Shown here: piece after piece, positions 2,600 through 21,723 of the stretch
Layout: the number at the start of each line of letters is the position of its first letter
Numbering within the stretch: position 1 is the stretch's first letter
Assembly: GCA_038998335.1 (NCBI GenBank)
Contig: JAVZHQ010000001.1
Location: 672,609-736,608 of the forward strand
Source: Candidatus Aenigmatarchaeota archaeon
GTDB lineage: Archaea; Aenigmatarchaeota; Aenigmatarchaeia; CG10238-14; SCSR01
Length of the DNA stretch: 64,000 nt
Direction of reading: 5' to 3'
The notes under the pieces: model-generated
Databases searched by the model: none
The model's input: the letters and a program-made list of their open reading frames with translations, nothing else
What the model was told of the DNA's origin: nothing
Position numbers and translations under genes: made by a program

Positions 2600-2881
2600 T
2601 TACTTTGCTAAAGTAATGTCTATGGTTGAAACATTCACTTTTGTTTTGTCTTCTAGTTCTCTTTCCTCTGTTCCTATCTCTATTGATTTTATTTTCACTC
2701 CTTCGACAAACCTTCTTCTTACTATTTCTGCAACGTCTACTGCTCTACTAATAGCTTTTCCTCTTGCCTTTATGTGAACCTCTGGCTTTCCGTCAGAGAA
2801 CTGAGTTATTACTCCTAACACATAAGCCATACTTGGTTTGCATTCGGTCGATGCTGCTTTGACAGCATCAATGTCCGACAA
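2600..2881 (-). CDS. albA: Alba (Sso10b-family) DNA/RNA-binding chromatin protein
   Basis: 93 aa; core [23 protein letters not shown] matches the Alba signature (IKARGRAISKAVDxxEIVR); start codon is TTG at 2881 (internal ATG would truncate the fold). Confidence 0.85.
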
Positions 2882-3712: not shown

Positions 3713-3791
3713 TAAATACACACCCTGTGTTAGTTATTGAAATACTGTTAAACTTATTTTAATTTAGAGAAATATCTTTAAAAGCTTTTTC

Positions 3792-6700: not shown

Positions 6701-8702
6701 GCGGAAAACAATGAAGATTTGTATGGCACCTATATTGTTCCCTACCACACTTTTCCGGACTTTCTAAGGTTTCCCAGAGTTGCCAAGTTACTGTCACTAA
6801 ACTATTGACTATTACTCCTGTTGGAGGATACTCTATCCTCCCTATAGAAAATGGCTCTGAAATATTAATAGTTATTGGTGCAGGACCTTCCTGCCCGGTT
6901 ATATTGATTGTTCTTGCTAGAGCATCATCCCACCATTCGTCTATCCTTCCATCTTTGTCTGCATCAAAATTTGAAATTCTCGTATGAGCCCAAATCATAA
7001 CTCTTTGATTTCCTGTTGTTATAGGATAGAAGGAAGCTGGAAGTTTGCATCGAACAGTTATATTTTTCTGTGGTGTTAAAGCTATTTCAGAAGTTAAAAC
7101 TTCACAGGTTGCACCTTCTGGACAACTTCCTCTTTCGTTTGCACAACCTCCTCTATTGTTTTTAGCATCAAAGTAAAGGTCTACTCTTCCTTTTCCGTCT
7201 CTAGTTTCCCATGGATTGTTAAAATCAGAAACGTTCCAAAATTCTACTCCCACAAACCAATCTGTTTGCTCCTTTGAACCAACATTTTTAATAACAATGT
7301 TTACAGTTATATTATAATTCTGAAAGACTTGAGCTGTTCCTTGAGTAATTTTGTTTACAGAAACTTCTTCTATCCATGAATCATACATAACGTTACATTC
7401 ACACTCACTAGAGTTTTTATTTTTATATTCCCTTACTTGGTAAGCTGAAGAATATTTTTCATACTTGTAGTACTCTGGCTTAGAACATTTTACTGGGTTT
7501 TCTGTGTTGTCAGGATAAACTCCAGTAAAGTAAGAGCAATCTACATGATACTTACAATTGTTATCACATGAATAGGGATTTTGGGACCAACCAGGAGGTT
7601 TTTCGTCACAGGCTTCATCAGCACCACATGCAAACTCGCATTGAGCTCCACCATTATTACAGTTTCTTTCTGTACCTCCACTACAAACTGTACAATTCAC
7701 GCATTTTTTTGTTGTATTATCACATCTCCATTTTCCACCTGACCAAATACAATGATTATTATCATCGCAAGGACAATCTTCACGATTTTGTTTACATACA
7801 CCAGTTTTTTTGCAACAGTAATAACCTGAAGCACAATCAGAGTCAGATTGGCAAGAAGTTAAACAATTACCATTTCTACAGGCATAAGGCGAACAATCTG
7901 TTGAATATAGAAAACAAGTTTCTCCACATTTTTTTCTAACAGTTCCATCGCATGTACTATAACCTACAGGTTTTTCATCACATTCCTCACTCGCACCACA
8001 AGCTGACTCACATACAATCTCAACATTACAACCAACTGTTTCACAATCCCAAATCCCTGTAAATTCTATGCAACTTTTAGGAGTACCATAACATCTTTTG
8101 TATTGATTTGAATATTTACACCCTGCTAATTCGCATCTTTCCTTTCTTGTCTGTTCATCAGAAATTTCATTATAGGAGTCACATGACTTAGGAGTACCTT
8201 TACAAATTAAAGAAGAGGGAGGATGGTACAGCCCATTCCTGTCACCAAATTTCTTCCATTGATAGGAACCTAGACATTCGATGCACTGCTTTTCGCTTTT
8301 ATCCCATACGCCCATGTATTTGTGTTCTTTACATCCCCAGTCCCAATAATCTATACTGACTACGCAAGGCTCACCATTCCATTTATTGACATCTGGGCAC
8401 CTATACTCTTCACAAGCACAAGTGTTTGGTACTTCTTCTGGTGGGATGCCATCAGGACAACTACTCATACCATAGTAAATATAACCTTCACACCATTCTC
8501 CAAAATCCTGGCACTCGTTATTTTTATTTATTAAACATCTAGAAGTTCCTGAAAGATCGATTACTGCTTCGAAACAATAACCACAACCTAACACACCTAT
8601 CCAGTCCCCAGCGCATCTATAGTGACAACCAGCCCTCGCATCAGTAAATAGAACTAAAAAAGTTAAGAAAAACGATAATAAAACTATTTTATACCATTTC
8701 AT
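3792..8702 (-). CDS. Giant (~1636 aa) cysteine-rich secreted surface protein with N-terminal signal peptide, tandem Cys repeats, coiled coil and C-terminal TM anchor
   Basis: Signal peptide MKWYKIVLLSFFLTFLVLFTDARAG; >100 Cys in EGF/laminin-like spacing; five ~21-aa CGxGxC..CPxDC repeats (nt ~4194..4568); heptad-rich segment then TM ILIILVVVGVVAGIFIVLW and cytoplasmic tail KKPEEEYYY; many N-x-S/T sequons. Longest ORF starts TTG at 8714. Confidence 0.75.
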   Translation of the reverse strand: MKWYKIVLLSFFLTFLVLFTDARAGCHYRCAGDWIGVLGCGYCFEAVIDLSGTSRCLINKNNECQDFGEWCEGYIYYGMSSCPDGIPPEEVPNTCACEEYRCPDVNKWNGEPCVVSIDYWDWGCKEHKYMGVWDKSEKQCIECLGSYQWKKFGDRNGLYHPPSSLICKGTPKSCDSYNEISDEQTRKERCELAGCKYSNQYKRCYGTPKSCIEFTGIWDCETVGCNVEIVCESACGASEECDEKPVGYSTCDGTVRKKCGETCFLYSTDCSPYACRNGNCLTSCQSDSDCASGYYCCKKTGVCKQNREDCPCDDNNHCIWSGGKWRCDNTTKKCVNCTVCSGGTERNCNNGGAQCEFACGADEACDEKPPGWSQNPYSCDNNCKYHVDCSYFTGVYPDNTENPVKCSKPEYYKYEKYSSAYQVREYKNKNSSECECNVMYDSWIEEVSVNKITQGTAQVFQNYNITVNIVIKNVGSKEQTDWFVGVEFWNVSDFNNPWETRDGKGRVDLYFDAKNNRGGCANERGSCPEGATCEVLTSEIALTPQKNITVRCKLPASFYPITTGNQRVMIWAHTRISNFDADKDGRIDEWWDDALARTINITGQEGPAPITINISEPFSIGRIEYPPTGVIVNSLVTVTWQLWETLESPEKCGREQYRCHTNLHCFPPGIVPPDENDVRGWIDECDPYVGRPSTPCVSSTMEDQIKETYTGKIFVDKAGNWTCRIHLRNKNRDVFSPIFKIEVKDIPNEPYCVIEPSSKTVYSDRKANFTLKLKNGKDTSITWRSVITYNKLHKQCADYLEEEVVTVDNLVDQGLSRDGISLECYYPTVQKEIETYFKVAIPYQIGSEPKSTACFSYVKVLPPLPCNITSFQLLGTLSGTPAVRKGETVKAIIQGDNCEGKTAKIKDISTGNLMCTCTFSGSVCINQTCFVAPEKLGVYTYEVSASPPSLNASIFVFAYGLNILNENYGSYSINWKLLPEWPTKEKEFFLFLDVKDSSGNPLTPSTTSFLYTYPGYTTTQYSFSYFPNLYLNVGKFWVINEKLPKSYNIPFDNIQISGVKISAREVVSNNLVERMDGLIVPGEIIIDVKQTDWNKDQKRLALLVSSSDQNANLSYRVWKVFDLSLYKQGDFTNYGTNFQAEIIGLDLDQFFVEILASGKSTGGKVLAFGLEKPNFLLNVTPSAISGESYPNKTFKTNITLKNIGNSDITDLLVEASDEIKQFTSISFERELKVGESQNVSLTFEIGEKNFNGKIFVKYAGKTISIPVSISIKETPKISVSPLEISIVAVSGQRFEQKITLTNNGKVAVTIYSIEVYGVENTSTNFYGTDTIQPSKSKTYSIIGTLFRTGEYEGYVRIESDAGIKTVSLKVKVTSILPSCGDGKCESSKGENKDNCCLDCGCPTGKVCDRALNLCVEQKCGNGVCDVEENSTSCPKDCYCGDGVCNIDENRTTCPRDCPSVTCNNNGICEEGESYPSCSDCPGFYCGNKICEPGEEITCSQDCPQTQKELESKINNLTSRVSSLEKDMESLGDKVNSTLWSELGQIKNLLNEAKNALNQGDYSTALSKYNEANRRYQTLRQIVDELLQRFIKPSSDFSTILIILVVVGVVAGIFIVLWKFGYLKIKLWKKPEEEYYY

Positions 8703-9690
8703 TTTTAACACCAATCAAAATAATCCGATTATCATAAGAATAGTAAAATACGACATTTTTACCGTTTCTCGCTATTACCGAATTTTCACATTTTTTGCAT
8801 GGAGTTTGTGTTAATTTAGTTTTATCAACTGGTATGACAACAAATTTATTTAGGAAATTACCACAAACTTCATATTGGCAGTCGATTTTATAACCTGCAA
8901 ACTCTTTATCAAAATAATAAAGTAGTGTTAAATTTGCTCCTTCGCAGAAAGAGGATACCTCTACATATTTATTAAATTCTAAATTATCTATCGGACAATT
9001 AAAAACTTTTCTAAAAGATAATTCAGCTCTATCTTTTTCTTGAAGATTGTCTATCAAGATAGGTGGATATAAAGAATAGGTACCCATGTCTACCCATATC
9101 TTATAATTTCCATCAGTACACTTTACAACCAAGACAATAGTTGTAAAGTTTTTAATGTATGAGGAAAAATCGATAGAATGATTTTTAATTTCACAAGTAG
9201 AAAAAGATGGATATTTTTCTTTTATCTCTCTAAAAAGATAATCTAAAAAATTACTTTCTGAAACTTTTTTAAGCAAATTTGATTGGAAATCAAAAATAAA
9301 TGTCTTCAATTTATTTTCATAGACGCAATAAAATGATAATTGATATTCATTCTCGTATTCTTTTGAATCATAAAATTTACAATTTTCCAATTCTTCCCAT
9401 ACTTCTGGTTCTTCCCAAAGAAAGCTCCATCCATTCAGCTTGTAACTAATATTTCCACTTTTATACTCTGTATAGAAAGGCCTTCCGTTACAAACAAGCC
9501 AAAATTCACCATTATCGCCAAAACCATTTATTTTTTCTTTGACAATCTTACAAAATTCCAACTTTTCTTCAAGTAAATTTATCACTCTATTTCTAATATT
9601 ATTTGGAACTACTAAAAAGTACCAATAACAAATCACGATAATGACTATACCAAGTATTAAGAAAATCAAAGTTAATATCTTAATATTCAT
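8689..9690 (-). CDS. Membrane-anchored (N-terminal TM) Cys-containing extracellular protein, 333 aa, unknown function; co-transcribed with giant surface protein
   Basis: ATG start; N-terminal TM LILGIVIIVICYWYFLVV; stop overlaps start of 3792..8702 gene by 14 nt. Confidence 0.45.
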   Translation of the reverse strand: MNIKILTLIFLILGIVIIVICYWYFLVVPNNIRNRVINLLEEKLEFCKIVKEKINGFGDNGEFWLVCNGRPFYTEYKSGNISYKLNGWSFLWEEPEVWEELENCKFYDSKEYENEYQLSFYCVYENKLKTFIFDFQSNLLKKVSESNFLDYLFREIKEKYPSFSTCEIKNHSIDFSSYIKNFTTIVLVVKCTDGNYKIWVDMGTYSLYPPILIDNLQEKDRAELSFRKVFNCPIDNLEFNKYVEVSSFCEGANLTLLYYFDKEFAGYKIDCQYEVCGNFLNKFVVIPVDKTKLTQTPCKKCENSVIARNGKNVVFYYSYDNRIILIGVKNEMV

Positions 9691-9774: not shown

Positions 9775-11109
9775 ATGGCAAAATGCCCTTATTGTGGTTC
9801 AGAAAAAACCACATCTTACAAAACACCAGAAGGAGAAAAGGGTCATTATTGCTATGATTGCAAAAGAGAATTTAAAACTATAGGAGATAAAATTCTAACC
9901 GGAATTTTTAAAAAGAAAGAAACAAAAAAAGAAGGCGAGGAAGGAAAAAAGAAAGAGAAAAGAACTTCTATAATTCCTGCTTTGTTTCTTTTAGCTGCTC
10001 TTGTAATAACTTTTCTTGTTCCTCTTGACCATACAACAAAAACTCTTATTGTTGCAGCAATGGGTATATTTGTAATGGTGGTTTATGGTTTTTTCAGTCT
10101 TGCAAGCTTTGGGTTTATAATCTTAATAATTTACTTGGTTTTTAACTTGCCAGTAGTACATGCTGAACTTGAAAAATATGAAGTTTATGAGCATTTTAAA
10201 AGAATTCAGCAAGAGTTTTGCATAGGCACTTGCATTTTATCAAATGCTTTTTATACAAGAGCAGACCCAAGGGCTTATTGTGAATCTCAATGTGGAGTTG
10301 TTCAAATAAGTAAAGTAGCAGGAGCTTGCACAGAATGCTTAACTTATGAAAAGTATGAAAGAATATACCCTGCAAGAGAAGGTTCTTCTGAAATCGTTGA
10401 TATAAACTTGAAAATGGCAAAATCGAACACGATAGCAAAAAATGTTTGGGTTGAAGTCTTTACTGATAAAGAAAATTTACCTGCAGAAATAAGTAAATGC
10501 AGCTTTAGCGAAACTTGCGAGCTTAGAAGTGAGGAAGAAAAAAGAGTAATAGCTACTTTTAATGAGAATGATGTGAAATGTGAAGGCTCTTTTTTCAAGT
10601 ACAGAATAAAAGTTGGCTATGATTTTGAAACAAAATCAGACAACTCTTTTGATTTGGTAAAAGAGTTTACAGGAACTATAACTGAAATTAAAAGTCCATC
10701 CTCAGAAGGGCCTTTAAGCGTAAGTATAGGAGGGCAAAAATACTATGTAGTTGGAGAAGATGATTATGCCTATATTTCAATATATGTTTCAAACGAAGGA
10801 AAAGGTTCTGTTAAAATTAAAGAGATAAAAGTTTATCAAATTCCACCATACGGACAAGAAGAATTAAGCTTTACTTATGATTGTACAAAAGGCTATATTT
10901 TCAGTAAAGCCGATTACTATTATTCAGAAAAAACTTTAACTGTTAGTGGAACTATTTCTTCACTTGGAAAAAATGAAAAGGATGCTATAATTTGCAAGTT
11001 TTCACTTCCTAGCGACATTCCTTCTTCAAGGCTAACTTACAGTTTTAAAGCAGAAGTAAGTTATTCTTATGAGCTAGAGAATAGCTACAGTATACCATGC
11101 AAAAAATAG
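9775..11109 (+). CDS. Membrane protein with N-terminal cytoplasmic zinc ribbon (CPYCG..17..CYDCK), 2-3 TM helices and a large Cys-rich, beta-rich extracellular domain
   Basis: CxxC..CxxC at residues 4-29; Lys/Glu linker; TM segments IIPALFLLAALVITFLV / LIVAAMGIFVMVVYGFF / FIILIIYLVFNL; ATG start. Confidence 0.5.
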   Translation: MAKCPYCGSEKTTSYKTPEGEKGHYCYDCKREFKTIGDKILTGIFKKKETKKEGEEGKKKEKRTSIIPALFLLAALVITFLVPLDHTTKTLIVAAMGIFVMVVYGFFSLASFGFIILIIYLVFNLPVVHAELEKYEVYEHFKRIQQEFCIGTCILSNAFYTRADPRAYCESQCGVVQISKVAGACTECLTYEKYERIYPAREGSSEIVDINLKMAKSNTIAKNVWVEVFTDKENLPAEISKCSFSETCELRSEEEKRVIATFNENDVKCEGSFFKYRIKVGYDFETKSDNSFDLVKEFTGTITEIKSPSSEGPLSVSIGGQKYYVVGEDDYAYISIYVSNEGKGSVKIKEIKVYQIPPYGQEELSFTYDCTKGYIFSKADYYYSEKTLTVSGTISSLGKNEKDAIICKFSLPSDIPSSRLTYSFKAEVSYSYELENSYSIPCKK

Positions 11110-11110
11110 T

Positions 11111-11494
11111 TTAGCAACCACAAGCTTGTGCACATTTTTGGTAATCGGTATAACCTGCATATCTACAAACCTCATCCATAGTAACTTTTCCGTCAATTTC
11201 GCCTAAAATACCATCTATACATCTCGTGTTTGGGATTAAAGCTAGAGGAACTGTGTAATTTACATTTGACTTACCGTCAGACTTGCAATTAGTTGACCAA
11301 GCTTTACATGCTGTTTTAAAGATTGTTTCAGGATCAGAACAAGGTGGACAGCATACGATGTACCACCACCAGATAGCCCCTATAAAGAAAACTAAACATA
11401 TAACAAAAATAAAACAATAGAAAATCTTAAGAATAGTTTTTACTCTGTTGTGCAAATGAAAAGGTGCTAACCTCCACAACATTTTTGTCGGCAA
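11111..11494 (-). CDS. Cys-rich membrane-anchored protein with EF-hand-like Ca-binding loop, paralog of 11467..11781
   Basis: TM ILKIFYCFIFVICLVFFIGAIWWWYIV then CCPPCSDPE...ALIPNTRCIDGILGEIDGKVTMDEVCRYAG aligning with neighbour; N-terminus/start uncertain (28-nt overlap with upstream gene). Confidence 0.4.
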   Translation of the reverse strand: MPTKMLWRLAPFHLHNRVKTILKIFYCFIFVICLVFFIGAIWWWYIVCCPPCSDPETIFKTACKAWSTNCKSDGKSNVNYTVPLALIPNTRCIDGILGEIDGKVTMDEVCRYAGYTDYQKCAQACGC

Positions 11495-11781
11495 TCTGAT
11501 ACTCCAGCATAACTACAGGCTTCTTCCATTGTTACCTTACCATCACCATCAATATCTACACATCTTGTGTCTGGAATTAAAGCTGGAGGAACTATGTAAT
11601 CAGCTGGGTTATCCTGACAGTGGGAAGTTGCCCAACCTCTACAGGCTTGGGTAATGACATACTCTGGATCAGGGCAATGTGGGAAAAACCACAGATACCA
11701 AACAACTACTGCAAGCAAAACAACTACTGCAATTATCAGAATCACAAGATATTCAACTGGTAAAGCAATTCCTTTGCTCAT
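11467..11781 (-). CDS. Pilin-like (class III signal peptide) Cys-rich protein with canonical EF-hand/dockerin-like loop DIDGDGKVTMEE
   Basis: MSKG|IALPVEYLVILIIAVVVLLAVVVWYLWFF (KG then hydrophobic helix with Glu); C-terminal domain with 9 Cys and 12-residue DxDxDGxVxxxE loop. Confidence 0.5.
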   Translation of the reverse strand: MSKGIALPVEYLVILIIAVVVLLAVVVWYLWFFPHCPDPEYVITQACRGWATSHCQDNPADYIVPPALIPDTRCVDIDGDGKVTMEEACSYAGVSDCRQKCCGG

Positions 11782-11812
11782 AAAATAAATTTCGATTTTT
11801 TTATTCTTAAAG

Positions 11813-12277
11813 CTAAGCTTTTATTTCATAAGCTATCTCAGAAACAGTCTCGGCAGAAAAGTCAAGCATACCAGCTTGAGAATATTTTTCAGCGGAAAAT
11901 TTTAATCTTACGATAACTTTTGTCAAATCGGAATTGAAATCCAGAGAAATCTTTTCCAACTTAATTGAAGATTCTAATGGTATAGGATCAAAATTTTCGT
12001 TCAATCTTTCTAAAAAGGTTTGCCTTAAGCTATCATCGTTTTTCAAATCATCAAATGTTATGCCCATATCTGAAAGTGTTTTTTCAAAAGAAAACTTTAA
12101 AGCTTGTTTAGCGTTTAGCTTTGCAAACTCTATTTTATTTATAAGGTTGTAAACTCTAGAAACATAGTCAGAAAATTCGCATTCTTGGCTAAGCCTGCTT
12201 GCAAGGAAAAAATCAACTAAAACAAAAATTACTAGCACCACAACAAAACCAGCAAGATATTTTACGTATCCTTTCAT
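11813..12277 (-). CDS. Pilin-like protein (class III signal peptide-like N-terminus), 154 aa
   Basis: MKG|YVKYLAGFVVVLVIFVLVDFFL; in-operon position, 4-nt gap to next gene. Confidence 0.45.
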   Translation of the reverse strand: MKGYVKYLAGFVVVLVIFVLVDFFLASRLSQECEFSDYVSRVYNLINKIEFAKLNAKQALKFSFEKTLSDMGITFDDLKNDDSLRQTFLERLNENFDPIPLESSIKLEKISLDFNSDLTKVIVRLKFSAEKYSQAGMLDFSAETVSEIAYEIKA

Positions 12278-12281
12278 TCTT

Positions 12282-12833
12282 TCACCCTGTAACCAAAATT
12301 ACTTTTAACTTTTGAAGGTTTGGTAAAGTTAAAGTAGTGTATGAAGAATACCTTCCACCAAACTGAAAGTAAGTTAGCATACTTCCAAGGTTGCAAGGGT
12401 TATACTCTTTAGTTTCTATTTCAGAATTGCCAAATTCAAGGATATTCTCCTCTTCGTTTCTCACAGCAAGGTAATAATCCCTATTCGGAATGATTGTTTC
12501 CATCTTGGTTCTAATTAATTCTTCTAAATCAATTTCATTATTATCAACAACAATTCTTTTACTTTTTTCAAGAGCACCATAAGCCAAAAGCTCTTGAACT
12601 TGCTTGTTTGTTTTTGTTTCAGTTGAACCTAAAAGAGTGAACAAAGCATGGTCTGAGGTTAAAGGGGTGTGAAGCGGGCTTAAAGTAACTTTAACTGTTA
12701 CTGGAGCATGTAACCAGCCGTGAGTAAGTCCGGAAACATACTGCCAGCCCCATAAAAAGTTTGGCAAAAGCATAAGTATTATGAAGCATGTTAGTACTAC
12801 TATCGCAAAAAGAATAGCCTCAGTTACAGCCAT
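12282..12833 (-). CDS. Pilin-like / pilus-associated protein with N-terminal hydrophobic helix, 183 aa
   Basis: MAVTEAILFAIVVLTCFIILMLL N-terminus; tight operon spacing. Confidence 0.4.
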   Translation of the reverse strand: MAVTEAILFAIVVLTCFIILMLLPNFLWGWQYVSGLTHGWLHAPVTVKVTLSPLHTPLTSDHALFTLLGSTETKTNKQVQELLAYGALEKSKRIVVDNNEIDLEELIRTKMETIIPNRDYYLAVRNEEENILEFGNSEIETKEYNPCNLGSMLTYFQFGGRYSSYTTLTLPNLQKLKVILVTG

Positions 12834-12837
12834 TCCT

Positions 12838-13269
12838 CTAATAAATTCCCACCTCCATTCTTCCTTCTACAAACTTATCAGGATATTTTATTAAAACAGG
12901 GTAGGATAAAGTATCTTCTATCTCAAAACCTTTTGAGCCTATAACCCAATGGCCGTTCTCACTGTCTGTAATTTCGACATAGAAGTTTTTCTTGAAAGAA
13001 ATGCTGCAGCTAGGATTTGAATCTAGTTTGCTTTTATCAAAAACTCCACGCCAGTTATTGCCGTTTTCCTTATAAACCAAGCATTCATGATTTAAAAGAT
13101 TCTCCATCAAATCTATAAGATATCTCGCATCTTCTCTTGCCTCAAAAGTTACTTGGTATTGCATAACCCCTAACAAACAGCCTAGAATTGTCATGGTCAG
13201 AAGAAGAAAAGAAATAACTTTAAGCATAACCTCTGGTGGAATTGAAACCTGACCTTTCAGGAAAGCCAA
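12838..13269 (-). CDS. Pilin-like protein (class III signal peptide-like: KGQ then hydrophobic helix), 143 aa
   Basis: MAFLKG|QVSIPPEVMLKVISFLLLTMTILGCLLGV. Confidence 0.45.
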   Translation of the reverse strand: MAFLKGQVSIPPEVMLKVISFLLLTMTILGCLLGVMQYQVTFEAREDARYLIDLMENLLNHECLVYKENGNNWRGVFDKSKLDSNPSCSISFKKNFYVEITDSENGHWVIGSKGFEIEDTLSYPVLIKYPDKFVEGRMEVGIY

Positions 13270-13721
13270 ATTTTATCACCTTCTTTTCTTGAACTAATAA
13301 AAAGGCCTTGCTCAGTGCAATATTTGTCAAACTTTTCAACGTTGATGTAATTCGGCTTAACTATAACAAAAGTAATTTCGGAAGTTTCCTTAATAATCAT
13401 TTCAGGACCTTCACCTTCCTCTGGCTCTATTTTCACTCCACCAGGAACTTTAAACTTTACTTTTTCTTCACTTATGTTAACAGTACATTTTGATAAACCT
13501 TTAACTCTAAATTCGAAAGAAAAGTTTCCATAAAAGCTTGAAGAAGCAGAAATTAAAGAGCTTAACCTTTGAGCGTTAGCCCTTGCATCGTAAAAACCCA
13601 TGCTTGTGGCTATTCCTACTCCACCGTAAAGAATAACATAAATCAAGACTAAAGCAACTATTATTCCGCCAATGAACATCATAAAATAGGTTGTGAATAA
13701 GGAACCTTTTACCATGAGCAT
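13257..13721 (-). CDS. Pilin-like protein (class III signal peptide-like), ~154 aa from internal ATG
   Basis: Longest ORF (to 13880) overlaps upstream gene by 172 nt; internal starts ATG 13721/13715 give M(LM)VKG|SLFTTYFMMFIGGIIVALVLIYVIL immediately after the upstream stop (13709..13711). Confidence 0.45.
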   Translation of the reverse strand: MLMVKGSLFTTYFMMFIGGIIVALVLIYVILYGGVGIATSMGFYDARANAQRLSSLISASSSFYGNFSFEFRVKGLSKCTVNISEEKVKFKVPGGVKIEPEEGEGPEMIIKETSEITFVIVKPNYINVEKFDKYCTEQGLFISSRKEGDKIWLS

Positions 13722-15910
13722 TCGCCAAAATTGCTTGCCCCCATTATATTTTGAGGAATGTAAGGATAGTTTACAACCAGGTCTCTTGTTACATCTATAA
13801 ATAACCTTACAGCATTTCCTAAGAATCCGCACACTGATTTTATCTTGTCGGCATCCGGCACTAGCCCAAGAGTTAAACATTTAACTATATCCATCCAATT
13901 TAAAGCTATTTCGGTAGGTAAGAATAAACTGCAAACTATAGCTGTAATGCAATCACCAAACCAAGCAGCAGCTTCTGCACCTACATAAAAATTAACAACT
14001 CCTTCTGTAGCATAGCAGTAATTCGGAACATCCTTAAACTCTTCTGGTTTTGTTTCGTCTGTGCAAAGAATCGGTTTGACATAAACAGTATCAGGCTCAT
14101 TACCACTAACATAAAGACGTAATTTTGCAAAGCAGGGACTTACCAAATAAAATCTGGGGTTTGATGCAACCACAGAATTTCTTTCTAATTTAATATTTTT
14201 AATTCCCCTTTCTTTGCAACTTTCTGGAAGAGGAAGTCTTGTGACATGATACCCTTTTTGCAAACAAATATAACCTTCTCCACAATAAGTTCCTGTTGTT
14301 GTATAATAAGAAATTTGTTTATCCCAATAAGTTGCACCTATAGGAGTATACATGTCTTGAAAACGAAGCCAAATATAGCCATAAGGTTCTAATTTTTCTT
14401 TTACACCTTCTACAAGATGGTATAAAGTTCCTTTTTTCGCATGAAAAAGATACTTTGCTTCTTTTGGGTCATTAGGTACTTCTTTAAGGTATTCCATAAA
14501 TTTATCACCAAGAACTTCATCAGAAGATAAACCATAATTTTTTATCAAACCTAAAAGTTTAGAATCCTTTGGCATAAGCAGAACACTTCCATCATCAGCC
14601 ATATGCCTTAGCTTTTCGGCAAATTCTATCATAAATTTTTGGGCCTCTTTTTTTGAAGTAACATCAACAGGAAGACCTTCTTTCATCATAGTCTCAACAA
14701 CTTCCCAAGATAATTCTTCATCGTATTTACCAACATACTCTAATTGATTGGCAAGAGTATGCAAACCTTTACCAGCCATAGCCTCGTCCCCAAAAGCTTC
14801 ACCAATTCTTGCTTTTAAAGAATTCCAACCTTCAGAAATTCTTTCCTTGATTCTTTGTCTTAAACTATTTTCGTCTATTTCTATATCCCCACTCTCTGTA
14901 AATATAACTCCGGCTAGATTTTCTGTCCCACCACGCTCTCCAGCTAATATGTATAAAGCATCTTTTACTTCCTTCCCTTCATTTGTACTGATATCAACAA
15001 CCCATTTAACTCCAACTTTTTTAACTTTACCTTGAGTCTGTAGGTCATACATTACACTTTCGAAACCTTCGTCTGCTGTTTCTTCATAAACTCTTGAAAA
15101 TTCTTCTGCAAGCTTCATTGACCTTGAAATTCTTGCTCTTTCAGCAAGTTTTGAAACAGCTTTTGGAATAATTATACTTGCTGTCCTTAAAGCTGGATAA
15201 ACCCATGCAGCATAATAAGCACATTCTCCCAAAGTTAAATCTGTTAATGAAAGACAAACTAATGTTGTAGCTATAGTAACTTCTGCAAAATGTTTAGCCT
15301 CTGTGATGATTACTTTTCCTGCTTTAACCACTATCTTACCAGAGTCTATTAATTTTTTAATTTTTTCATGAGCTACTTTAAAAGCTTCTATTCTTCCTGC
15401 TGCTTTTCCAAATGCATCTTTTATCTTGCTATAACCTGGGCTCATTCCTAGATATAGCATATCTATAGTAAGAGTTACCATCATGTTAGAAGTCCAGGGT
15501 GTGTCTTCTGACCAAGGAATAACCAAAGCTGAAATTGGATCTTGAACTCTTACATTATTAATATAAGTTTCCCACATAGACCATGAATACGAAGGAAATT
15601 CCTCATAATAAACATAAAAGTAAGGATCTGAACCTAAGTTTGCTCCTGAAATTCCTAAGAACTGATGAGTTAAACCTTTTAATCCTGTACTTTGGGCAAG
15701 CATAAAGTTTGTGTAGGCTTCGCCATTTTGACAAGCCAGATCTAAAGCATTGTAAAGTTTTGCAAAATTTTGATCTGCTATATTTTCATAGTAATTCTGA
15801 AAAAGGAATAGATAAATTGCAAAAGCTATTCCTATAGCTATTAACAAGCCTGCCAAAAACTTTAGCATTTGAGCACTTATAGTTAAACCTTTCATTTTAT
15901 ACAACCACAA
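13709..15910 (-). CDS. Large (733 aa) protein with class III signal peptide-like N-terminus; candidate pilus tip/minor pilin-adhesin
   Basis: MWLYKMKG|LTISAQMLKFLAGLLIAIGIAFAIYLFLF then ~700 aa soluble domain with several Cys; in pilus operon. Confidence 0.5.
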   Translation of the reverse strand: MWLYKMKGLTISAQMLKFLAGLLIAIGIAFAIYLFLFQNYYENIADQNFAKLYNALDLACQNGEAYTNFMLAQSTGLKGLTHQFLGISGANLGSDPYFYVYYEEFPSYSWSMWETYINNVRVQDPISALVIPWSEDTPWTSNMMVTLTIDMLYLGMSPGYSKIKDAFGKAAGRIEAFKVAHEKIKKLIDSGKIVVKAGKVIITEAKHFAEVTIATTLVCLSLTDLTLGECAYYAAWVYPALRTASIIIPKAVSKLAERARISRSMKLAEEFSRVYEETADEGFESVMYDLQTQGKVKKVGVKWVVDISTNEGKEVKDALYILAGERGGTENLAGVIFTESGDIEIDENSLRQRIKERISEGWNSLKARIGEAFGDEAMAGKGLHTLANQLEYVGKYDEELSWEVVETMMKEGLPVDVTSKKEAQKFMIEFAEKLRHMADDGSVLLMPKDSKLLGLIKNYGLSSDEVLGDKFMEYLKEVPNDPKEAKYLFHAKKGTLYHLVEGVKEKLEPYGYIWLRFQDMYTPIGATYWDKQISYYTTTGTYCGEGYICLQKGYHVTRLPLPESCKERGIKNIKLERNSVVASNPRFYLVSPCFAKLRLYVSGNEPDTVYVKPILCTDETKPEEFKDVPNYCYATEGVVNFYVGAEAAAWFGDCITAIVCSLFLPTEIALNWMDIVKCLTLGLVPDADKIKSVCGFLGNAVRLFIDVTRDLVVNYPYIPQNIMGASNFGECSW

Positions 15911-16200
15911 TGTCTAAAAAACTCTTCTGCACTATAGCCTGCATCACTTCTTATTTGATCTAAAGAACAACCATAAACATCGTTAATCATCTTTATATCA
16001 TCCTCATCCATATCACGATCATTATCAACATCGCATCCTCTGTTCCTCAATTCCAAACATCCTAACTCAACCAAAGAACCACAACCTGTTTGAGGAGGAA
16101 AAAGGTACAAATAAGCTATTATCGAAACCAAAACTATAAGAGCAACTATAACTATTACTGCAGTGTTTACAGGTAAACTAATCCCCTTGATTTCCACCAC
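15892..16200 (-). CDS. Pilin-like Cys-rich protein with acidic EF-hand-like loop (DVDNDRDMDEDD)
   Basis: MVEIKG|ISLPVNTAVIVIVALIVLVSIIAYLYLF; C-terminal domain with 7 Cys and DxDxDxD loop. Confidence 0.45.
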   Translation of the reverse strand: MVEIKGISLPVNTAVIVIVALIVLVSIIAYLYLFPPQTGCGSLVELGCLELRNRGCDVDNDRDMDEDDIKMINDVYGCSLDQIRSDAGYSAEEFFRHCGCIK

Positions 16201-16339
16201 CTTTTATCAAATCCCAGAACAGTTTTGTAAGATCTTCAGCCCATTTTTTTCCTGCGGTTAAGAAAATTAAAGCAACAAGAAGAATTATTGCAAAAGCTAC
16301 TATCATTACCACAACTTTAAAGCTTATTTTTCCTTTCAT
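16178..16339 (-). CDS. Unannotated mini-pilin (53 aa, below ORF-track cutoff): MKGKISFKVVVMIVAFAIILLVALIFLTAGKKWAEDLTKLFWDLIKGGGNQGD
   Basis: Hand translation, ATG 16339..16337, stop TAG 16180..16178; class III-like MKG + hydrophobic helix; 3' end overlaps start of 15892..16200 in another frame. Confidence 0.4.
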   Translation of the reverse strand: MKGKISFKVVVMIVAFAIILLVALIFLTAGKKWAEDLTKLFWDLIKGGGNQGD

Positions 16340-16346
16340 CCTAATT

Positions 16347-16472
16347 CTACCCTGGTGGGTTATATCTCCACTCCCAAAAACTTGGAAGTCTTAAAACAAC
16401 AAAAACTATGACAAAAAGAATAATCGCTGCTATTATTATTCCAATTATCAGCCATAGCATATCCTCGTCCAT
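16347..16472 (-). CDS. Possible 41-aa single-TM micro-protein (MDEDMLWLIIGIIIAAIILFVIVFVVLRLPSFWEWRYNPPG)
   Basis: Hand translation only; sits between mini-pilin genes; no further support. Confidence 0.2.
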   Translation of the reverse strand: MDEDMLWLIIGIIIAAIILFVIVFVVLRLPSFWEWRYNPPG

Positions 16473-16491
16473 TATAATCCTTAATTTTTAG

Positions 16492-16683
16492 CTACAACGT
16501 GCTACAATCAAAGTTCGGATCTGAAACTTTTCTTATAAGGCATTCTATATACTTCCCCACATTAAACAAATTGCTCAAAGCTTCAGCTCCGTAACCTCTC
16601 ACATAAAGTGCAAAAACTACAATTATTAACAAAATTATAACAGTAACTACTACTGCTATTATCACGTTCATCGGTAGTTCCAT
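16492..16683 (-). CDS. Small single-TM protein (63 aa), possible minor pilin
   Basis: MELPMNVIIAVVVTVIILLIIVVFALYV; in tandem small-gene array. Confidence 0.35.
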   Translation of the reverse strand: MELPMNVIIAVVVTVIILLIIVVFALYVRGYGAEALSNLFNVGKYIECLIRKVSDPNFDCSTL

Positions 16684-16692
16684 AATTAATAT

Positions 16693-16905
16693 TTATCCTC
16701 TTGTAAATATATCGCATACGCCTGCTATAGGGTTTCCCTTACCAAAAACTTGCTCAAAAACTTGTTTACAAAGAACAACAGCACCCTCAGCTAAATTTCT
16801 TCCTGTAACTAAACTAAAAACAAGAACTGAAACTATAATAATCGCAATAATTGCTACAATTATTCCTACTATAACCTTCCAGCTTAGTTGTATAGCTCCT
16901 TTCAT
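16693..16905 (-). CDS. Mini-pilin (70 aa), class III signal peptide-like
   Basis: MKG|AIQLSWKVIVGIIVAIIAIIIVSVLVF; C-terminal CDIF motif shared with 17089..17316. Confidence 0.55.
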   Translation of the reverse strand: MKGAIQLSWKVIVGIIVAIIAIIIVSVLVFSLVTGRNLAEGAVVLCKQVFEQVFGKGNPIAGVCDIFTRG

Positions 16906-16906
16906 T

Positions 16907-17086
16907 TTACTTCCTTTCCGTGATTTTTTTCCAAAGTTCTACTAAATCCCTAATCGTAATGTTTTTAAAAAAATTAACTATCTCGTCAGAAAGTCCTGTA
17001 GTAAAAAGCAAGATTATCAAAAAAGCAGCTATAGAAGCTATTATAATCAAAAGTACTTTCCAGTTAAGCTCTATTACACCTTTCAT
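16907..17086 (-). CDS. Mini-pilin (59 aa from MKG start), class III signal peptide-like
   Basis: Internal ATG 17086 gives MKG|VIELNWKVLLIIIASIAAFLIILL; the first 30 nt are identical to the 5' end of 17089..17316; the longest ORF would overlap the upstream stop. Confidence 0.55.
   Translation of the reverse strand: MKGVIELNWKVLLIIIASIAAFLIILLFTTGLSDEIVNFFKNITIRDLVELWKKITERK
17057..17086. repeat. 30-nt segment identical to 17287..17316 (5' ends of two tandem mini-pilin genes)
   Basis: tttccagttaagctctattacacctttcat in both; encodes MKGVIELNWK. Confidence 0.7.
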
Positions 17087-17088
17087 TC

Positions 17089-17316
17089 TTATCCTTGCGG
17101 ACATTCTTGAAATATATCACAAATTCTAAGAGCACTTGCTCCATACCCCAAAAACTGCAACTTGCTAATCAAAAGCAAGCATCCTTCCCTTGCCCCTGCA
17201 CTCAAAGCACAAGTGTTAATCATTCCAAAAAGTATCAAAATAACTATTAGTAAGAGAATTATACCTGAAATTAAAAATACCAAGATTTTCCAGTTAAGCT
17301 CTATTACACCTTTCAT
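17089..17316 (-). CDS. Mini-pilin (75 aa), class III signal peptide-like
   Basis: MKG|VIELNWKILVFLISGIILLLIVILILF; ATGA overlap with upstream 43-aa gene. Confidence 0.55.
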   Translation of the reverse strand: MKGVIELNWKILVFLISGIILLLIVILILFGMINTCALSAGAREGCLLLISKLQFLGYGASALRICDIFQECPQG

Positions 17317-17444
17317 ACAAACTCAACTTTTATTGGAATTATTTTCATGTAAAAGACTGCGATGAAAACAAAAATTAAGATTATAGCCAAGCCTATAACT
17401 ATCCAAAGCAATGTTTGAACATGACTTTCTAACACACCTTTCAT
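17313..17444 (-). CDS. Unannotated mini-pilin (43 aa): MKGVLESHVQTLLWIVIGLAIILIFVFIAVFYMKIIPIKVEFV
   Basis: Hand translation; ATG 17444..17442 overlaps TGA stop of TadC/FlaJ gene (ATGA) and its own TGA overlaps next ATG (ATGA). Confidence 0.4.
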   Translation of the reverse strand: MKGVLESHVQTLLWIVIGLAIILIFVFIAVFYMKIIPIKVEFV

Positions 17445-19486
17445 CTTGGCGCACCCAAAAGCAAAACTTTTAGTATATCACCAAAAACTAAGTAAGTTAC
17501 AAACAAAACAATTACATAAACAATTGTTGAAACTAAGGTAATTTTTCCTATCAAGTTAACTTCGCCTACACGGTCTTCCCCATTTTCTATTCCGTTAACG
17601 AACATCCCTATTAAAAATGATGTTTCTATAACATAAATTCCTAATACAAGCTGGAAAATATCTGGAGAAATCCCTATTCCACCCCTCCAAAGTTTTAATA
17701 AAAAGCTTGCTGAACCAGGAACTTCAACGTTAGACATACTTCCAAACTGCAGAGAAAGAATAGCCAAAATGTTAATAACTATAACTGCCATCGCAACAGT
17801 TACTCCTGCAACCAAAGGAGCCAGGAAAAAACCTAGAAACTTCATGCTAGTTGCTGCCTCGCTTAAAATTTCCTGAATTTGTTCTTCTACTTGGTGCATC
17901 CCTTTCAAGTATCTTGAAATTGTCAAAGAACTTGTTGCAACAGCATTATAACCTTTTCTTGATGCATCAACTATTATTTTCATCACAGAGTAAATCAAAT
18001 CAGAAGGGTAAGCTTTTATAGCTCCTATCTTTTCGTCAAAAACAGATTTTTCAAAAGTCAAACCAAAGAGCTTTATGTTTCTTATTATCTTTTCGTAAAA
18101 GTTTGCTATTTCCATTTTCTTAAGGTTAAGCTTAGCCTTTTCTAGAGCAAACTCTATGGAATGGCCTGACTTAATTTGATGACCCAACTGGAATAAAGCT
18201 TCTCTGAATTCTCTTTCTAAGTTTTTAACCTTTTCTCTCAACTTGAGCTTTGGTTGACTAACCAAAAGACATGCAAAACCAATAGAAATTCCTATTCCTA
18301 AAATTATCGAAGAAGAAGAGATTGTAGGAGTTAAAGTATCAGTAATAACTTTTTTGCATTCATCAGAGCTCAGCTCTAAACCTTTAGGCTTAGAAGCGTT
18401 AAAACCAACAACCTGCCATTCTCTACAAAGAGATGAAAGTGTAGTATAATGATAAAGCATGGGTGCACCAAAAATTAAGAAGGCAAGAAGTATAGGAAAA
18501 ATTATCGTCAAGACCGAAATTTCAATTTTATTTTTTCCGATTTCTATCACTAAGCTATGGGCGCTTCCCTTTATTTGAGGCTGGGAAGTTGCTGGTGGTT
18601 TTCTTTCTAAAGTCTGATTCATTAACCAATAAAGAAGTAAAGGTAGAGCAACATCATAACCCAAAATTAAAAACCAAACGTTAAAAATTCCTTGCATAAA
18701 TATCATAACTATAGGGAAAATTATCAAAGCTATGACTGGTAGAATTATTCCTAAGGAATAGATTAGCATAACTGGCATTCTTAAGCCTAAAGCATAATGT
18801 TTCATTCTTTCAACAGTCCCGTTTAGCAAAACGTCTATTGCTTCATCAATTAAAGCAAGTCTTTGCTCACCAAGCTGGGAAGTAGAACTTTGGAGTATTT
18901 TAACAGTTTCAACAAACTCCTCGTTTTCTTTTCCCCATTTTTCAAGAAAATCGTCTAAAGCGTCATCAACAGAAAAATATCTTTGAGTTTCTAAGTCCCA
19001 AATTATTTTCTTTAAGTCTAAACCTATAACACCTCTTGAGTTTTCTGCCGCAAACCTTACCGCATTCTCTAGGTTAGAAGTTTCTCTCAAGGCAACTGCC
19101 ATGTAAAGAGTTGCCAAAATCATTTCAGTAGAAGCCCTTGCTCTTATTACTTTAACTTTTAAAAAAGGGTAATTGTACAAATAGAATAAAAAGAAAAGGA
19201 AGAGAAAAATTAAGCCAGCTAGTGCTATTGCATTTATTAAACCAAGCAATAAAAGAACAATTAAAACTGGAAAAACGATTAAGAACAAAACAGTAACTAA
19301 AGAGACTGGACCAGAAGGAGAAATGTTCAAATAGCAAAACCTTATTGCAGATTCAAACCTTTGTTCAGTTTCTTTACTTGCTCTAACCTTTAAAATTTTT
19401 TCAGCAAAGTTACAAGCTTTTTCATAAAGAGAAAGTTGTGGCTTCACGCTTTTTAAAAACTCTTGATACTCTTTTGAAATCATCAT
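17441..19486 (-). CDS. Type IV filament platform protein, TadC/FlaJ (T2SS-F) family, 681 aa
   Basis: Polytopic membrane protein with two cytoplasmic helical domains, immediately downstream of and overlapping (ATGA) the FlaI/VirB11-type ATPase; canonical operon partner. Confidence 0.7.
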   Translation of the reverse strand: MMISKEYQEFLKSVKPQLSLYEKACNFAEKILKVRASKETEQRFESAIRFCYLNISPSGPVSLVTVLFLIVFPVLIVLLLLGLINAIALAGLIFLFLFFLFYLYNYPFLKVKVIRARASTEMILATLYMAVALRETSNLENAVRFAAENSRGVIGLDLKKIIWDLETQRYFSVDDALDDFLEKWGKENEEFVETVKILQSSTSQLGEQRLALIDEAIDVLLNGTVERMKHYALGLRMPVMLIYSLGIILPVIALIIFPIVMIFMQGIFNVWFLILGYDVALPLLLYWLMNQTLERKPPATSQPQIKGSAHSLVIEIGKNKIEISVLTIIFPILLAFLIFGAPMLYHYTTLSSLCREWQVVGFNASKPKGLELSSDECKKVITDTLTPTISSSSIILGIGISIGFACLLVSQPKLKLREKVKNLEREFREALFQLGHQIKSGHSIEFALEKAKLNLKKMEIANFYEKIIRNIKLFGLTFEKSVFDEKIGAIKAYPSDLIYSVMKIIVDASRKGYNAVATSSLTISRYLKGMHQVEEQIQEILSEAATSMKFLGFFLAPLVAGVTVAMAVIVINILAILSLQFGSMSNVEVPGSASFLLKLWRGGIGISPDIFQLVLGIYVIETSFLIGMFVNGIENGEDRVGEVNLIGKITLVSTIVYVIVLFVTYLVFGDILKVLLLGAPR

Positions 19487-21723
19487 TTCAACCTAGATTT
19501 TAACCATTCCAACCATTTCTCATAAATCATCTTTGAATCCAAAGCACCAACTTCTTGCCTAACTTGCTCAGAAATTATGTGAAATGCATCGTTAGCGTCG
19601 CAAACAAAGTCTGCTTCAAGAATTTCTGGCTTGTTTAACCTTTCTGCATACTCAACTAAAGTCTGCTTAATTTTTGCTCTTAGTAAAATATTATCCCAAA
19701 CATCATCCCATCTTCCGTGCCATTCCCTTACTCTTTTAGCAATTTCGTTCAAAACATAGGATTCTCCATCTATTAAAGTATCAGTTGGTTTAAGTTTGTC
19801 TTCTTTTGCTGAGTATTGCATCAACGGAACAAAACCTCCCTCATCTAAAGGATCCTGCTTCCAATGTTTTCTCACTTCTGTTAATTCAACGACTCTTCTG
19901 AATCTATGTAAGCCATCAGGAGAGCGAAGCATGTTACAAATTGTGATTAAATCGATTGCCTTAAAGCTGGTTGGAGCTACACCCAAATCATGAACTACTC
20001 TGTCATAAACTCCGTAAGGAGACTCGCCGTGAATTGTTCCTGCAACAACATTAGCTAAAGCACCGATCCTCATTGCCTCAAAAAGAACTGTACTCTCTAC
20101 TGAGCGTACTTCTCCTACTATCAAGCAAGAATCTCCCAACCTTAAAGCAGTCCTTAAGGCTTCGTCAGCAGGTACTTCAGTTTCAACTCTTGTTATTACA
20201 GAGCGAGATTTTAGCCTTTCAATGTTATATCCTAGCTGTCTTAAATGAGATACAGGAAGCTCCAAAGTATCCTCTTGTATAATAATCCTAAACTTTCTCA
20301 TTATCTCCAAAAGTAAGGAAGAAAGTAATGAAGTTTTTCCTGAACTTCTTCCTCCTGCTATAAGAATTGCTCTTCCTCCATCAACAACAAAACTCATTAG
20401 TCCTGCGTACAAAGGATCAAACATTCTTGCCTTCAAAAACAAAGGGAATGTCCAGGGCCTTTCCCTATGCCTTCTGAAAGCAAAGGCTAAACCTTCAGGG
20501 CTTAAAGTTCTTGTTATTGCTGCAACTCTTGCCCTTCCTCCTGGAACTTCTAACTCGCAATCTAAAACTGGGTTTGCCTCGTCTAAAGGCCTACCAGAAT
20601 AAAGCCTAAAACGAGTTGCCCATGCTTCTGCATCTTCCTTAGTTGGTATTAAATTTGTTTCACATTCTTCAAAATCTGAGTGAAAAATAAAAATTGGTGT
20701 TAAGCCTATGGGTGAATTTATGTAAATGTCTTGGATTTTCTCATCGCTCAACAAAAGCTCGAGTACACCAAAACCTGCTGTGTAACGCGCTAAAAGCATT
20801 GCAAGCTCTTCAATTTCCTCTGGATTTAAATCCAAATTCATGCTTCTTCCAATTTCTCTAACCAAATCCTTTCCTATGTTGAAGAAAATTTCCCTTGCTT
20901 TTTGTGGTTCAGTAATTTCTGTTTCTGTAGGCTTATGAGCAGCTAGATAATTTTTTGTTCTGTCAAGAACCATAAACTTTTTCTCGTTTAGCTTGAATTC
21001 CGGAGGTGTTATATGGTAGAGCAGCCTAACTTTTCCTGGAACTTTGAAAATTTCAACCACAACATTTCCTGGTAAGTAGTACTTATCTAAAAGCTGACCT
21101 TCCCTTGGAGGAAGAAGCATAAAGCGAGTAAGCATAAAGTTTGGTTTTGTTAATGGATGGAAAATTTGCCTGTAAATTTTTCTATCCCCTGGTTTATAGC
21201 CTTCTAGCTTTTCTTTTGCCATTTTTATTAGCTTGCAAGAAGAAAGAATTTTTTCTATAGGCAATAAAGCATTTTCTAGGTAATGGGTATAACACTTTTT
21301 CATTTCTGGTGGAGCTTTTTCTTCGTTTATTTTTGCTGCTAAGATCATTTTTTGTAGTCTTAAATAAGCTGCAACAGGATCTTTTCTCAAAAGCTCAAGA
21401 ATTAGAAATTGCAAGGCAGAAAACCTTTTTGAGAATAAATTCTCACAACCAGGACAAACAAGTTTTTCCATGGTTAAAAACTTCTCCTCGTTTAAAATTT
21501 TGTTGTAAGCTTCTGCTATTTCTCTTAAAATTTTTACTTGCTCAAAGTCATATTCATTTTCCCTAGTTTCTGCAAGTATTATCCTTTCAACATTTTTTAC
21601 TTCTAAAAGTTTGTCTATGGTTTTTGCCATACAAGCTTGAAAATCCTCTATGCTTGAACCATAAATACAGCCCAAGCAATTTACTCTTAAAGTATTCTCC
21701 CTAAGCTCGTAATCGCAGACCAA
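19483..21723 (-). CDS. Type IV filament assembly ATPase (FlaI/TadA/VirB11/GspE superfamily) with ~300-aa N-terminal extension
   Basis: Walker A GGRSSGKTSLLSSLL; family-typical IVGEVRSVE box and ALANVVAGTIHGESPYGVYDRV His box region; start is TTG at 21723 (next ATG at ~21630). Confidence 0.85.
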   Translation of the reverse strand: MVCDYELRENTLRVNCLGCIYGSSIEDFQACMAKTIDKLLEVKNVERIILAETRENEYDFEQVKILREIAEAYNKILNEEKFLTMEKLVCPGCENLFSKRFSALQFLILELLRKDPVAAYLRLQKMILAAKINEEKAPPEMKKCYTHYLENALLPIEKILSSCKLIKMAKEKLEGYKPGDRKIYRQIFHPLTKPNFMLTRFMLLPPREGQLLDKYYLPGNVVVEIFKVPGKVRLLYHITPPEFKLNEKKFMVLDRTKNYLAAHKPTETEITEPQKAREIFFNIGKDLVREIGRSMNLDLNPEEIEELAMLLARYTAGFGVLELLLSDEKIQDIYINSPIGLTPIFIFHSDFEECETNLIPTKEDAEAWATRFRLYSGRPLDEANPVLDCELEVPGGRARVAAITRTLSPEGLAFAFRRHRERPWTFPLFLKARMFDPLYAGLMSFVVDGGRAILIAGGRSSGKTSLLSSLLLEIMRKFRIIIQEDTLELPVSHLRQLGYNIERLKSRSVITRVETEVPADEALRTALRLGDSCLIVGEVRSVESTVLFEAMRIGALANVVAGTIHGESPYGVYDRVVHDLGVAPTSFKAIDLITICNMLRSPDGLHRFRRVVELTEVRKHWKQDPLDEGGFVPLMQYSAKEDKLKPTDTLIDGESYVLNEIAKRVREWHGRWDDVWDNILLRAKIKQTLVEYAERLNKPEILEADFVCDANDAFHIISEQVRQEVGALDSKMIYEKWLEWLKSRLK

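Follow-up and report, generated by a model that had tools for sequence, protein, structure and literature searches.

Directly behind the platform gene of a pilus-like locus in an uncultured archaeon stands a run of genes for proteins of only 41 to 75 amino acids (aa) each, and the question that this locus raises is what these genes are and how they came to be there. The locus lies on the minus strand (11111-21723) of a 64-kb window, by which we mean the whole 64,000-nucleotide stretch analysed (Candidatus Aenigmatarchaeota, 32% GC), and its source organism is known from metagenome-assembled genomes (MAGs) alone. DPANN archaea rely on host contact, for which type IV pili are prime candidates, and most of their pilins are unannotated 'dark matter'. 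Type IV pilus loci of DPANN archaea are reported to have a FlaI/TadC core and, after it, unrecognisable 'dark matter' signal-peptide proteins, for which Makarova, Wolf and Koonin (2019, PMC6393860) predicted a role as diverse pilins; that statement is a general one, and the array considered here presents the same situation. An earlier, sequence-only reading of the window saw in it at least six consecutive tiny pilin genes, the result of recent duplication and diversification of the major subunit. Our analysis indicates an old array, conserved within a type IV pilus operon of Aenigmatarchaeota, and no recent gene burst. The most probable explanation, to which we assign a probability of about 0.62, is that 11111-21723 is one type IV pilus-like operon and that its very small genes (minis) encode, in five of seven cases, pilin-like proteins, more likely platform-specific minor, priming or alternative subunits than a recently amplified major pilin.

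A pilus-like operon with seven very small genes

The first gene of the operon (19483-21723; minus strand, as are all operon genes below) encodes an assembly ATPase of 746 aa that matches Pfam T2SSE with E=2.8e-13 (score 49.7 bits, cut-off 24.9). It is followed by a TadC/FlaJ-like platform gene (17441-19486; 681 aa, about 10 transmembrane (TM) helices), whose start overlaps the ATPase stop and whose stop overlaps the start of the first mini. The Pfam matches of this TadC itself are weak (T2SSF, E=0.026, residues 127-258; Spore_III_AB, E=0.0034, residues 411-555). Among 39 full-length TadC homologues, 32-90% identical to it and including at 33% the window's own second TadC-like paralogue (TadC2), 20 match T2SSF at E<=0.01 (best 7e-11), and we therefore regard the open reading frame (ORF) at 17441-19486 as a TadC/FlaJ-type platform protein.

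Seven minis come next. In the order of transcription these are g43 (17313-17444; MKG/VLESHVQTLLW, the slash marking the predicted processing site, and one TM helix), g75 (17089-17316; MKG/VIELNWK, a TM helix and a Cys-containing helical C-terminus), g59 (16907-17086; MKG/VIELNWK and a TM helix without Cys, an N-terminal paralogue of g75), g70 (16693-16905; MKG/AIQLSWK, a TM helix and a Cys pair ending in CDIF, also a paralogue of g75), g63 (16492-16683; MELPMNVII..., a single TM helix and two conserved Cys), g41 (16347-16472; MDEDMLWLII..., a single TM helix) and g53 (16178-16339; MKG/KISFKVVV, a TM helix and a short amphipathic tail), each handle giving the length in aa. Translation of g59 might also begin farther upstream, with the ATG at 17104, and would then give 65 aa; the NCBI annotation has 59 aa. 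In g41, the N-terminus is acidic and a basic residue follows the TM helix, and its membrane orientation is probably the opposite one. The sequence-only reading had described six of these ORFs correctly and had overlooked g41, the seventh. It had also presented g43 and g53 as genes below the cutoff of its ORF list; they are not unannotated: all minis had already been called by the Logan gene caller and by NCBI, where the seven are QXS48_01440-01470 (g43 is QXS48_01440, g59 QXS48_01450, g41 QXS48_01465 and g53 QXS48_01470), and where QXS48_01440 to QXS48_01475 carry the name 'hypothetical protein' in 4-5 MAGs.

The main reason for regarding the minis as pilin-like is the combination of an N-terminal signal motif, a hydrophobic helix and the operon context. 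Archaeal class III signals have a charged residue at -2 and G, A or S at -1 in front of the hydrophobic domain, with processing sites such as KG/QV and KG/IS (PMC4371748). The products of g43, g75, g59, g70 and g53 follow this rule, all beginning with MKG and a hydrophobic helix, as had been noted earlier for g43 and g53; those of g63 and g41 have no [KR][GA] and do not, so that the motif supports the proposed run of tiny pilins for five of the genes and not for g63. A scan for M-x(0-8)-[KR][GA] ahead of a hydrophobic helix gave 17 matches in the window, 11 of them in one minus-strand block at 11467-17444, compared to 0.35 matches per 64 kb in shuffled sequence, and the pattern therefore exceeds chance. 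The theme therefore runs beyond 16178, where the array had been thought to end, and on to 11467. As for context, the minis share one operon with the ATPase and the TadC platform, with overlapping stop and start codons.

Every gene from the ATPase down to 11111 points in the same direction, and neighbours overlap or lie no more than 31 nucleotides (nt) apart, which fits one operon: the ATPase, the platform and about 15 small-to-large proteins, eleven of which have a very short class III-type start. Of 16 operon genes, 8 are preceded, at a distance of 3-16 nt, by a Shine-Dalgarno-like motif, compared to a background of 17% (P=0.002). The gene after g53, g102 (15892-16200; 101/102 aa), was found by the signal scan and has orthologues in the three relatives introduced below; its product combines ..IKG/ISLPVN and a TM helix with a Cys-rich C-terminal domain, its KG/IS site is of the UpsB type (Table 1 of PMC4371748), and its size is more conventional for a pilin. 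Seven further genes, packed in the same way, fill 11111-15895. The N-terminus consists of [KR]G and a hydrophobic helix in five of them (728, 152/154, 143, 154 and 104 aa) but not in the other two (183 and 123 aa), and no Pfam family was matched by any of these downstream proteins. The last two genes, of 104 and 123 aa in tandem (11111-11781), have in common a Cys-rich C-terminal domain, ..ALIP(D/N)TRC(V/I)D...DGKVTM(E/D)E(A/V)C..YAG, with a weak EF-hand-like match; a clear signal, KG/IALPVEY, is found in the 104-aa protein only, and both are candidates for conventional pilins.

To place the minis in a wider context we recovered 79 related loci, labelled Aenigmatarchaeota nearly throughout, and took gene positions over the 44 Aenigmatarchaeota loci having enough sequence downstream. 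In 28 of the 44, TadC is directly followed by a gene of 34-54 aa with [KR][GA] and a TM helix (position-1), and in 24 of the 44 a gene of 55-77 aa comes next (position-2). We define the position-2 family as proteins of 55-77 aa encoded second after TadC, with [KR][GA], one TM helix and a C-terminal Cys-x(8-20)-Cys. The protein g43 aligns with the position-1 family (alignment A2), and g75 and g70 align with the position-2 family (alignment A1), where K2, G3 and C46 are conserved in at least 90% and C66 is invariant. Both g75 and g70 satisfy the position-2 definition; g59 has the N-terminus only, without the Cys pair. Some family members have longer basic leaders, and in these [KR][GA] still stands directly before the helix; leaders of variable length that all end in [KR][GA] would be expected of a peptidase site more than of a mere positive-inside anchor.

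A single-sequence search with g75 found 3 relatives only, and it took profiles to reach the family at large. In a word-indexed search of 5.8 billion clusters, the profiles retrieved 40 position-2 and 27 position-1 clusters, all of them unnamed or hypothetical and without a Pfam domain; organism-named clusters of both families are almost all from Aenigmatarchaeota. Against the full 1.84-billion-protein library the position-2 profile matched 50 representatives. The window TadC protein occurs as an exact match on public contigs of up to 0.2-1 Mb, and the g43 protein is present on a contig of 938,630 bp. We found no description of either family, or of the seven-gene array, in the literature searched. 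The analysis places seven 'hypothetical' proteins in a pilus operon, and the two families that follow TadC could improve the annotation of Aenigmatarchaeota genomes.

Among characterized systems, the closest in organization are the Epd pili of Methanococcus maripaludis (type IV filament (TFF) 'system 1'). The major pilins of archaeal Epd pili have a length of about 70 aa and no globular domain (PMC4858521; bioRxiv 10.64898/2026.04.22.720090). Both systems have an ATPase and a TadC-type platform, several small class III-signal proteins with a KG/ site (here predicted) and headless subunits of about 70 aa; in the Epd system these are EpdE (arCOG06620, ~70 aa) and the minor, operon-encoded EpdA-C. 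However, sequence similarity to Epd pilins was not detected, and Pfam, including Class_IIIsignal and Pilin_N, gave no significant match to the minis, which also lack the +1 Gln of EppA substrates. Moreover, the platform here is one 681-aa gene at the locus where the Epd system has two, and the minis directly follow it, unlike epdE, which is a stand-alone gene. An origin of the Tad system from an Epd-like pilus of archaea has been proposed (PMC6668835), and the minis resemble bacterial Flp/Tad pilins in being very short, nearly all-helical by prediction and encoded with a TadA/TadBC-like machine. They differ in that Flp pilins have a G/xxxxEY motif and a longer leader, whereas the leader here is MKG with an acidic residue at +3 (g43, g75 and g59), in that Pfam scans of the minis gave no match to Flp_Fap, and in the archaeal host. 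Finally, like PilA1-6 of Haloferax volcanii, the minis include paralogues with a conserved N-terminal module and divergent C-termini (PMC4371748), but the PilA proteins have a nearly identical H-domain, while here the likeness covers the first 10 residues only, and the minis are much smaller and encoded inside the machinery operon. The tandem array itself is in line with what is known of archaeal type IV pilus loci.

Subunits, partners of the platform, or an exchangeable cassette

From the motif and its context we infer that the minis with an MKG start, plausibly very small pilin-like subunits, are cleaved and enter a filament. A prepilin peptidase, its gene lying in another part of the genome, would cut off the MKG leader, the hydrophobic N-terminal helix would remain in the membrane after cleavage, and the ATPase/TadC machine would then pull this helix out and pack it into the filament core. 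The resulting subunits would be almost all-helical, like Flp/Tad or EpdE pilins.

Several results weigh against this account. Curated pilin models in Pfam and NCBIfam match no mini protein: the sole match to a pilin model was Pilin_N for g75 at E=0.6, the NCBIfam scan of the minis returned nothing, 0 of 23 position-2 members matched a pilin family, and scans of every mini and of these 23 members with both libraries gave TM-helix noise only. The profiles of both mini families, searched against PDB sequences, brought up other TM or helical proteins only, unrelated and at E>0.1. Modelled with AlphaFold2 (AF2), g75 consists of three helices, a long N-terminal one (2-31) and two short ones (35-54 and 59-70). 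This shape is compatible with a pilin and in so far favours the account, but it is not specific to pilins, the model is of only moderate confidence (mean predicted local distance difference test, pLDDT, 70), and a Foldseek search of the PDB with it found nothing below E=8.9 and no pilin fold. By sequence, a three-residue MKG leader is indistinguishable from a plain N-in membrane anchor, and g63 and g41 have no motif altogether. A prepilin peptidase of the Peptidase_A24 type was not found by Pfam among 40 window ORFs scanned. The polytopic ORFs of the window matched glycosyltransferase 4, M50 protease, PMT_2, STT3/AglB and flippase families, and those of the operon and its flanks matched no family. 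In the flanks of the related loci, 10 ORFs with at least 5 TM helices carry a GxGD-like Asp motif, none of which was confirmed as a peptidase.

A further point against cleavage comes from a relative. Three related loci have the same cassette type as the window and are used for comparison throughout: L077 (ATPase 93% and TadC 90% identical to those of the window), L005 (81% and 76%) and L025 (63% and 46%). In the g53 orthologue of L077 (3865-4038) the ATG before KGK is ATT, and the fifth codon has changed from ATA to ATG. The product would begin at MSFK, approximately the mature start, unless the ATT is used, which means that at least g53 either dispenses with a cleavable leader or is started at ATT. 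Nature would thus have provided a 'leaderless' version of this putative prepilin. The orthologues in L005 and L025 begin with MKKA/ALSFKV... and MKG/FSFSTS..., respectively.

The alternative that survives best, possible although unlikely, is that the minis are not filament subunits at all but uncleaved, single-pass accessory or stabilising partners of the TadC platform, kept stoichiometric with it by translational coupling, their MK start reflecting the positive-inside rule. The gene junctions are in agreement with such coupling. The sequence-only reading had reported ATGA overlaps between the TadC stop and the g43 start and between the g43 stop and the g75 start, and had suggested coupling from them; both overlaps are present, and the junctions are kept in relatives. 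The g43/g75 ATGA is retained in all four genomes (window, L077, L005 and L025), and the TadC/g43 junction is ATGA in L077 and TGATG in L025, with no overlap in L005. Conserved overlaps of this kind with TadC point to about equimolar synthesis with a low-copy protein, and the minis always move with TadC in the module swaps described below. The putatively leaderless g53 of L077, the conservation of g63 and g41 in the array without a signal motif, and the lack of homology to known pilins also favour partners over subunits. However, the positive-inside rule does not demand a near-invariant G or A after K/R, which is the -1 determinant of prepilin peptidase (PMC4371748), and leaders of different lengths end in the same [KR][GA]. 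The same N-terminus is also found on downstream proteins of 101-728 aa that resemble pilins or adhesins, and minor pilins elsewhere are likewise encoded in operons beside the machinery (PMC4371748, PMC4858521). We therefore favour pilin-like proteins, and the ATGA chaining to a low-copy platform gene, together with co-variation with TadC, makes minor, priming or alternative pilins the more likely kind.

The co-variation with TadC became apparent from a comparison with L002, a Candidatus Aenigmatarchaeota hot-spring MAG (JAWBTW010000004.1) whose ATPase is 99% identical to that of the window at the protein level. The two DNAs are 97% identical over the ATPase and the genes upstream of it, and this identity breaks off a few bases at most from the ATPase stop codon, at window position 19490. 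Comparisons with L004 and L049 gave the same breakpoint (19488 and 19490). The block exchanged, window 9860-19490 against L002 8655-18221, comprises TadC and all downstream pilin-like genes, and it is exchanged also in L003, L004 and L049; the ATPases concerned are 86-99% identical. In its place L002 has other minis (44 and 67 aa) and another set of pilin-like genes, partly on the opposite strand. Identities of the two machine components are accordingly incongruent: the window and L002 have ATPases 99% and TadC proteins 38% identical, as against 81% and 76% for the window and L005 and 89% and 87% for L002 and L004. It follows that TadC and the pilin-like genes reassort as a module against the ATPase, and these alignments suggest a recombining cassette for platform and pilin specificity.

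In Pseudomonas aeruginosa, pilA allele islands exchange the pilin and accessory genes beside a conserved pilB. The situation here is similar in that pilin-like genes are replaced by recombination beside a conserved assembly ATPase gene; unlike in the pilA islands, the TadC platform gene is swapped along with them and the breakpoint falls at the ATPase stop codon. The reassortment of the TadC module also resembles the high non-synonymous diversity reported for FlaJ/TadC in Nanoarchaeota (PMC6142677).

A stronger version of the pilin-like account, which we consider rather doubtful, is that the position-1 minis (about 31-51 aa when mature, essentially a single helix) and the position-2 minis (a helix with a disulfide-stapled tail) are the actual building blocks of the filament, and that TadC and the minis together form a swappable host-specificity cassette recombining at the ATPase stop. 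If this were true, the minis would be among the smallest pilins known, and a DPANN episymbiont could switch its attachment organelle while retaining the motor. Of the findings at this locus, the exchange of the module is probably the one more worth following, and it points to platform-pilin specificity and to variation of the episymbiont surface.

Age and coding status of the array

The claim that the array arose by recent tandem amplification and diversification of a major pilin gene appears very improbable. It had been based on two likenesses between neighbouring minis, both of which are real. First, 17057-17086, the 5' end of g59 that encodes MKGVIELNWK, is identical to 17287-17316, the 5' end of g75, over exactly 30 nt and without extension by even one base on either side; a repeat search of the operon found nothing besides this repeat. 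Second, g75, ending in ...RICDIFQECPQG, and g70, ending in ...GVCDIFTRG, have CDIF in common. Tandem duplication is also known for major pilins (PMC4858521). However, CDIF is the context of the second Cys of the C-terminal pair and belongs to the position-2 family as a whole, and nothing marks any of the minis as a major pilin. All seven minis are present in the same order in L077 and L005, and six of the seven in L025, where g43, g59, g63, g41 and g53 have orthologues as they do in the other two; the paralogue set is therefore common to genomes at 81-93% ATPase identity and largely also at 63%. Copy number, proposed earlier as something that might vary among related genomes, does not vary in L077 or L005. 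The split of g75 and g70 occurred after the divergence of L025 and before that of the window, L077 and L005.

The nucleotide sequences of the paralogues point in the same direction. The proteins g75, g59 and g70 begin with a common decapeptide, MKG(V/A)I(E/Q)L(N/S)WK. Over the first 30 nt, g59 agrees with g75 at 30/30 and g70 at 22/30 in the window, and all three genes agree at 29-30/30 in L077; directly beyond, over nt 31-105, identity among the paralogues falls to 44-53% in the window, in L077 and in L005 alike. In L005 the decapeptide is the same but is written in other codons (23-25/30), which argues for local homogenisation and not for duplication of whole genes. Synonymous states are common to the paralogues within a genome and differ between genomes, with GGT/CTT in the window and GGA/CTA in L077. 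With the codon usage of the window, two independent encodings of the same peptide would arrive at identical codons with a probability of 0.002. The identical 5' ends are best read as the outcome of short-tract gene conversion among old paralogues, in addition to selection for the N-terminal peptide. Recent duplication was rejected on the dN/dS ratios given below, synteny and these nucleotide-identity profiles.

Selection on the minis was estimated as the ratio of non-synonymous to synonymous substitution rates (dN/dS) by the Nei-Gojobori method. Pooled dN/dS was 0.17-0.19 at dS 0.77-1.37, which indicates strong purifying selection on the annotated frames. Per gene, the values range from 0.05 to 0.50 (g43 0.10-0.28, g75 0.05-0.09, g59 0.17, g70 0.35-0.46, g63 0.16-0.35, g41 0.05-0.24 and g53 0.23-0.50). 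Comparison across strains, which the sequence-only reading had proposed as a check together with the integrity of the short ORFs in relatives, thus speaks for g43, g53 and the other minis: gene order is conserved, and no frame-disrupting indels were seen in the orthologues. All seven mini ORFs are genuine protein-coding genes. It is hardly credible that AT-rich DNA produced the short ORFs, or some of them (g43, g41 and g53 above all), by chance, although the window has 32% GC and an alternative-frame ORF within g41 is open in L077 too, given dN/dS of 0.05-0.5 at high dS, lengths, order and junctions kept across four genomes, and g43-type and g75-type families found phylum-wide; dN/dS and synteny were the grounds for its rejection.

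Other features of the window

A second TadC-like gene (TadC2; 692 aa, 467-2545, minus strand) shares 33% identity with the first along the whole protein and about 29-35% with the platforms of all related loci compared. No ATPase gene lies beside it in the window, which ends just beyond a gene for a 131-aa TM protein downstream of it (79-474, minus strand). We considered whether the platform gene of L002 is an orthologue of TadC2 and rejected this, as TadC2 is about 31% identical to all of them.

Where the region of difference from L002 has its far edge, there is a free-standing homing-endonuclease-like gene (LAGLIDADG_3/NUMOD3, E=2.4e-21; 2924-3721, minus strand) beside an Alba gene (E=1.3e-19; 2600-2881, minus strand). 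The neighbouring ORF (3792-8714, minus strand) encodes a very Cys-rich protein of 1640 aa. It has a signal-like helix at the N-terminus, a TM anchor at the C-terminus, a coiled coil and a weak CARDB/Ig-like match, and is probably a giant surface protein; a 1619-aa ORF at 38002-42861 is similar to it.

On the other side of the operon, three tandem paralogues of 181-190 aa with 5 TM helices each (26581-28250, plus strand), one with a weak DUF2070 match, resemble numerous ORFs near the ATPase of related loci, which likewise have 5 TM helices and a length of about 180-220 aa. Rfam and tRNA scans gave a tRNA-Leu at 32162-32248 as their sole match and no RNA features in the array region. The window also holds genes for surface glycans and N-glycosylation, namely STT3/AglB, PMT_2, glycosyltransferase 4 and a Polysacc_synt flippase (47595-49736, minus strand; 53461-57698), and g59 contains an N-I-T sequon that is N-V-T in L077 and is not kept in L005.

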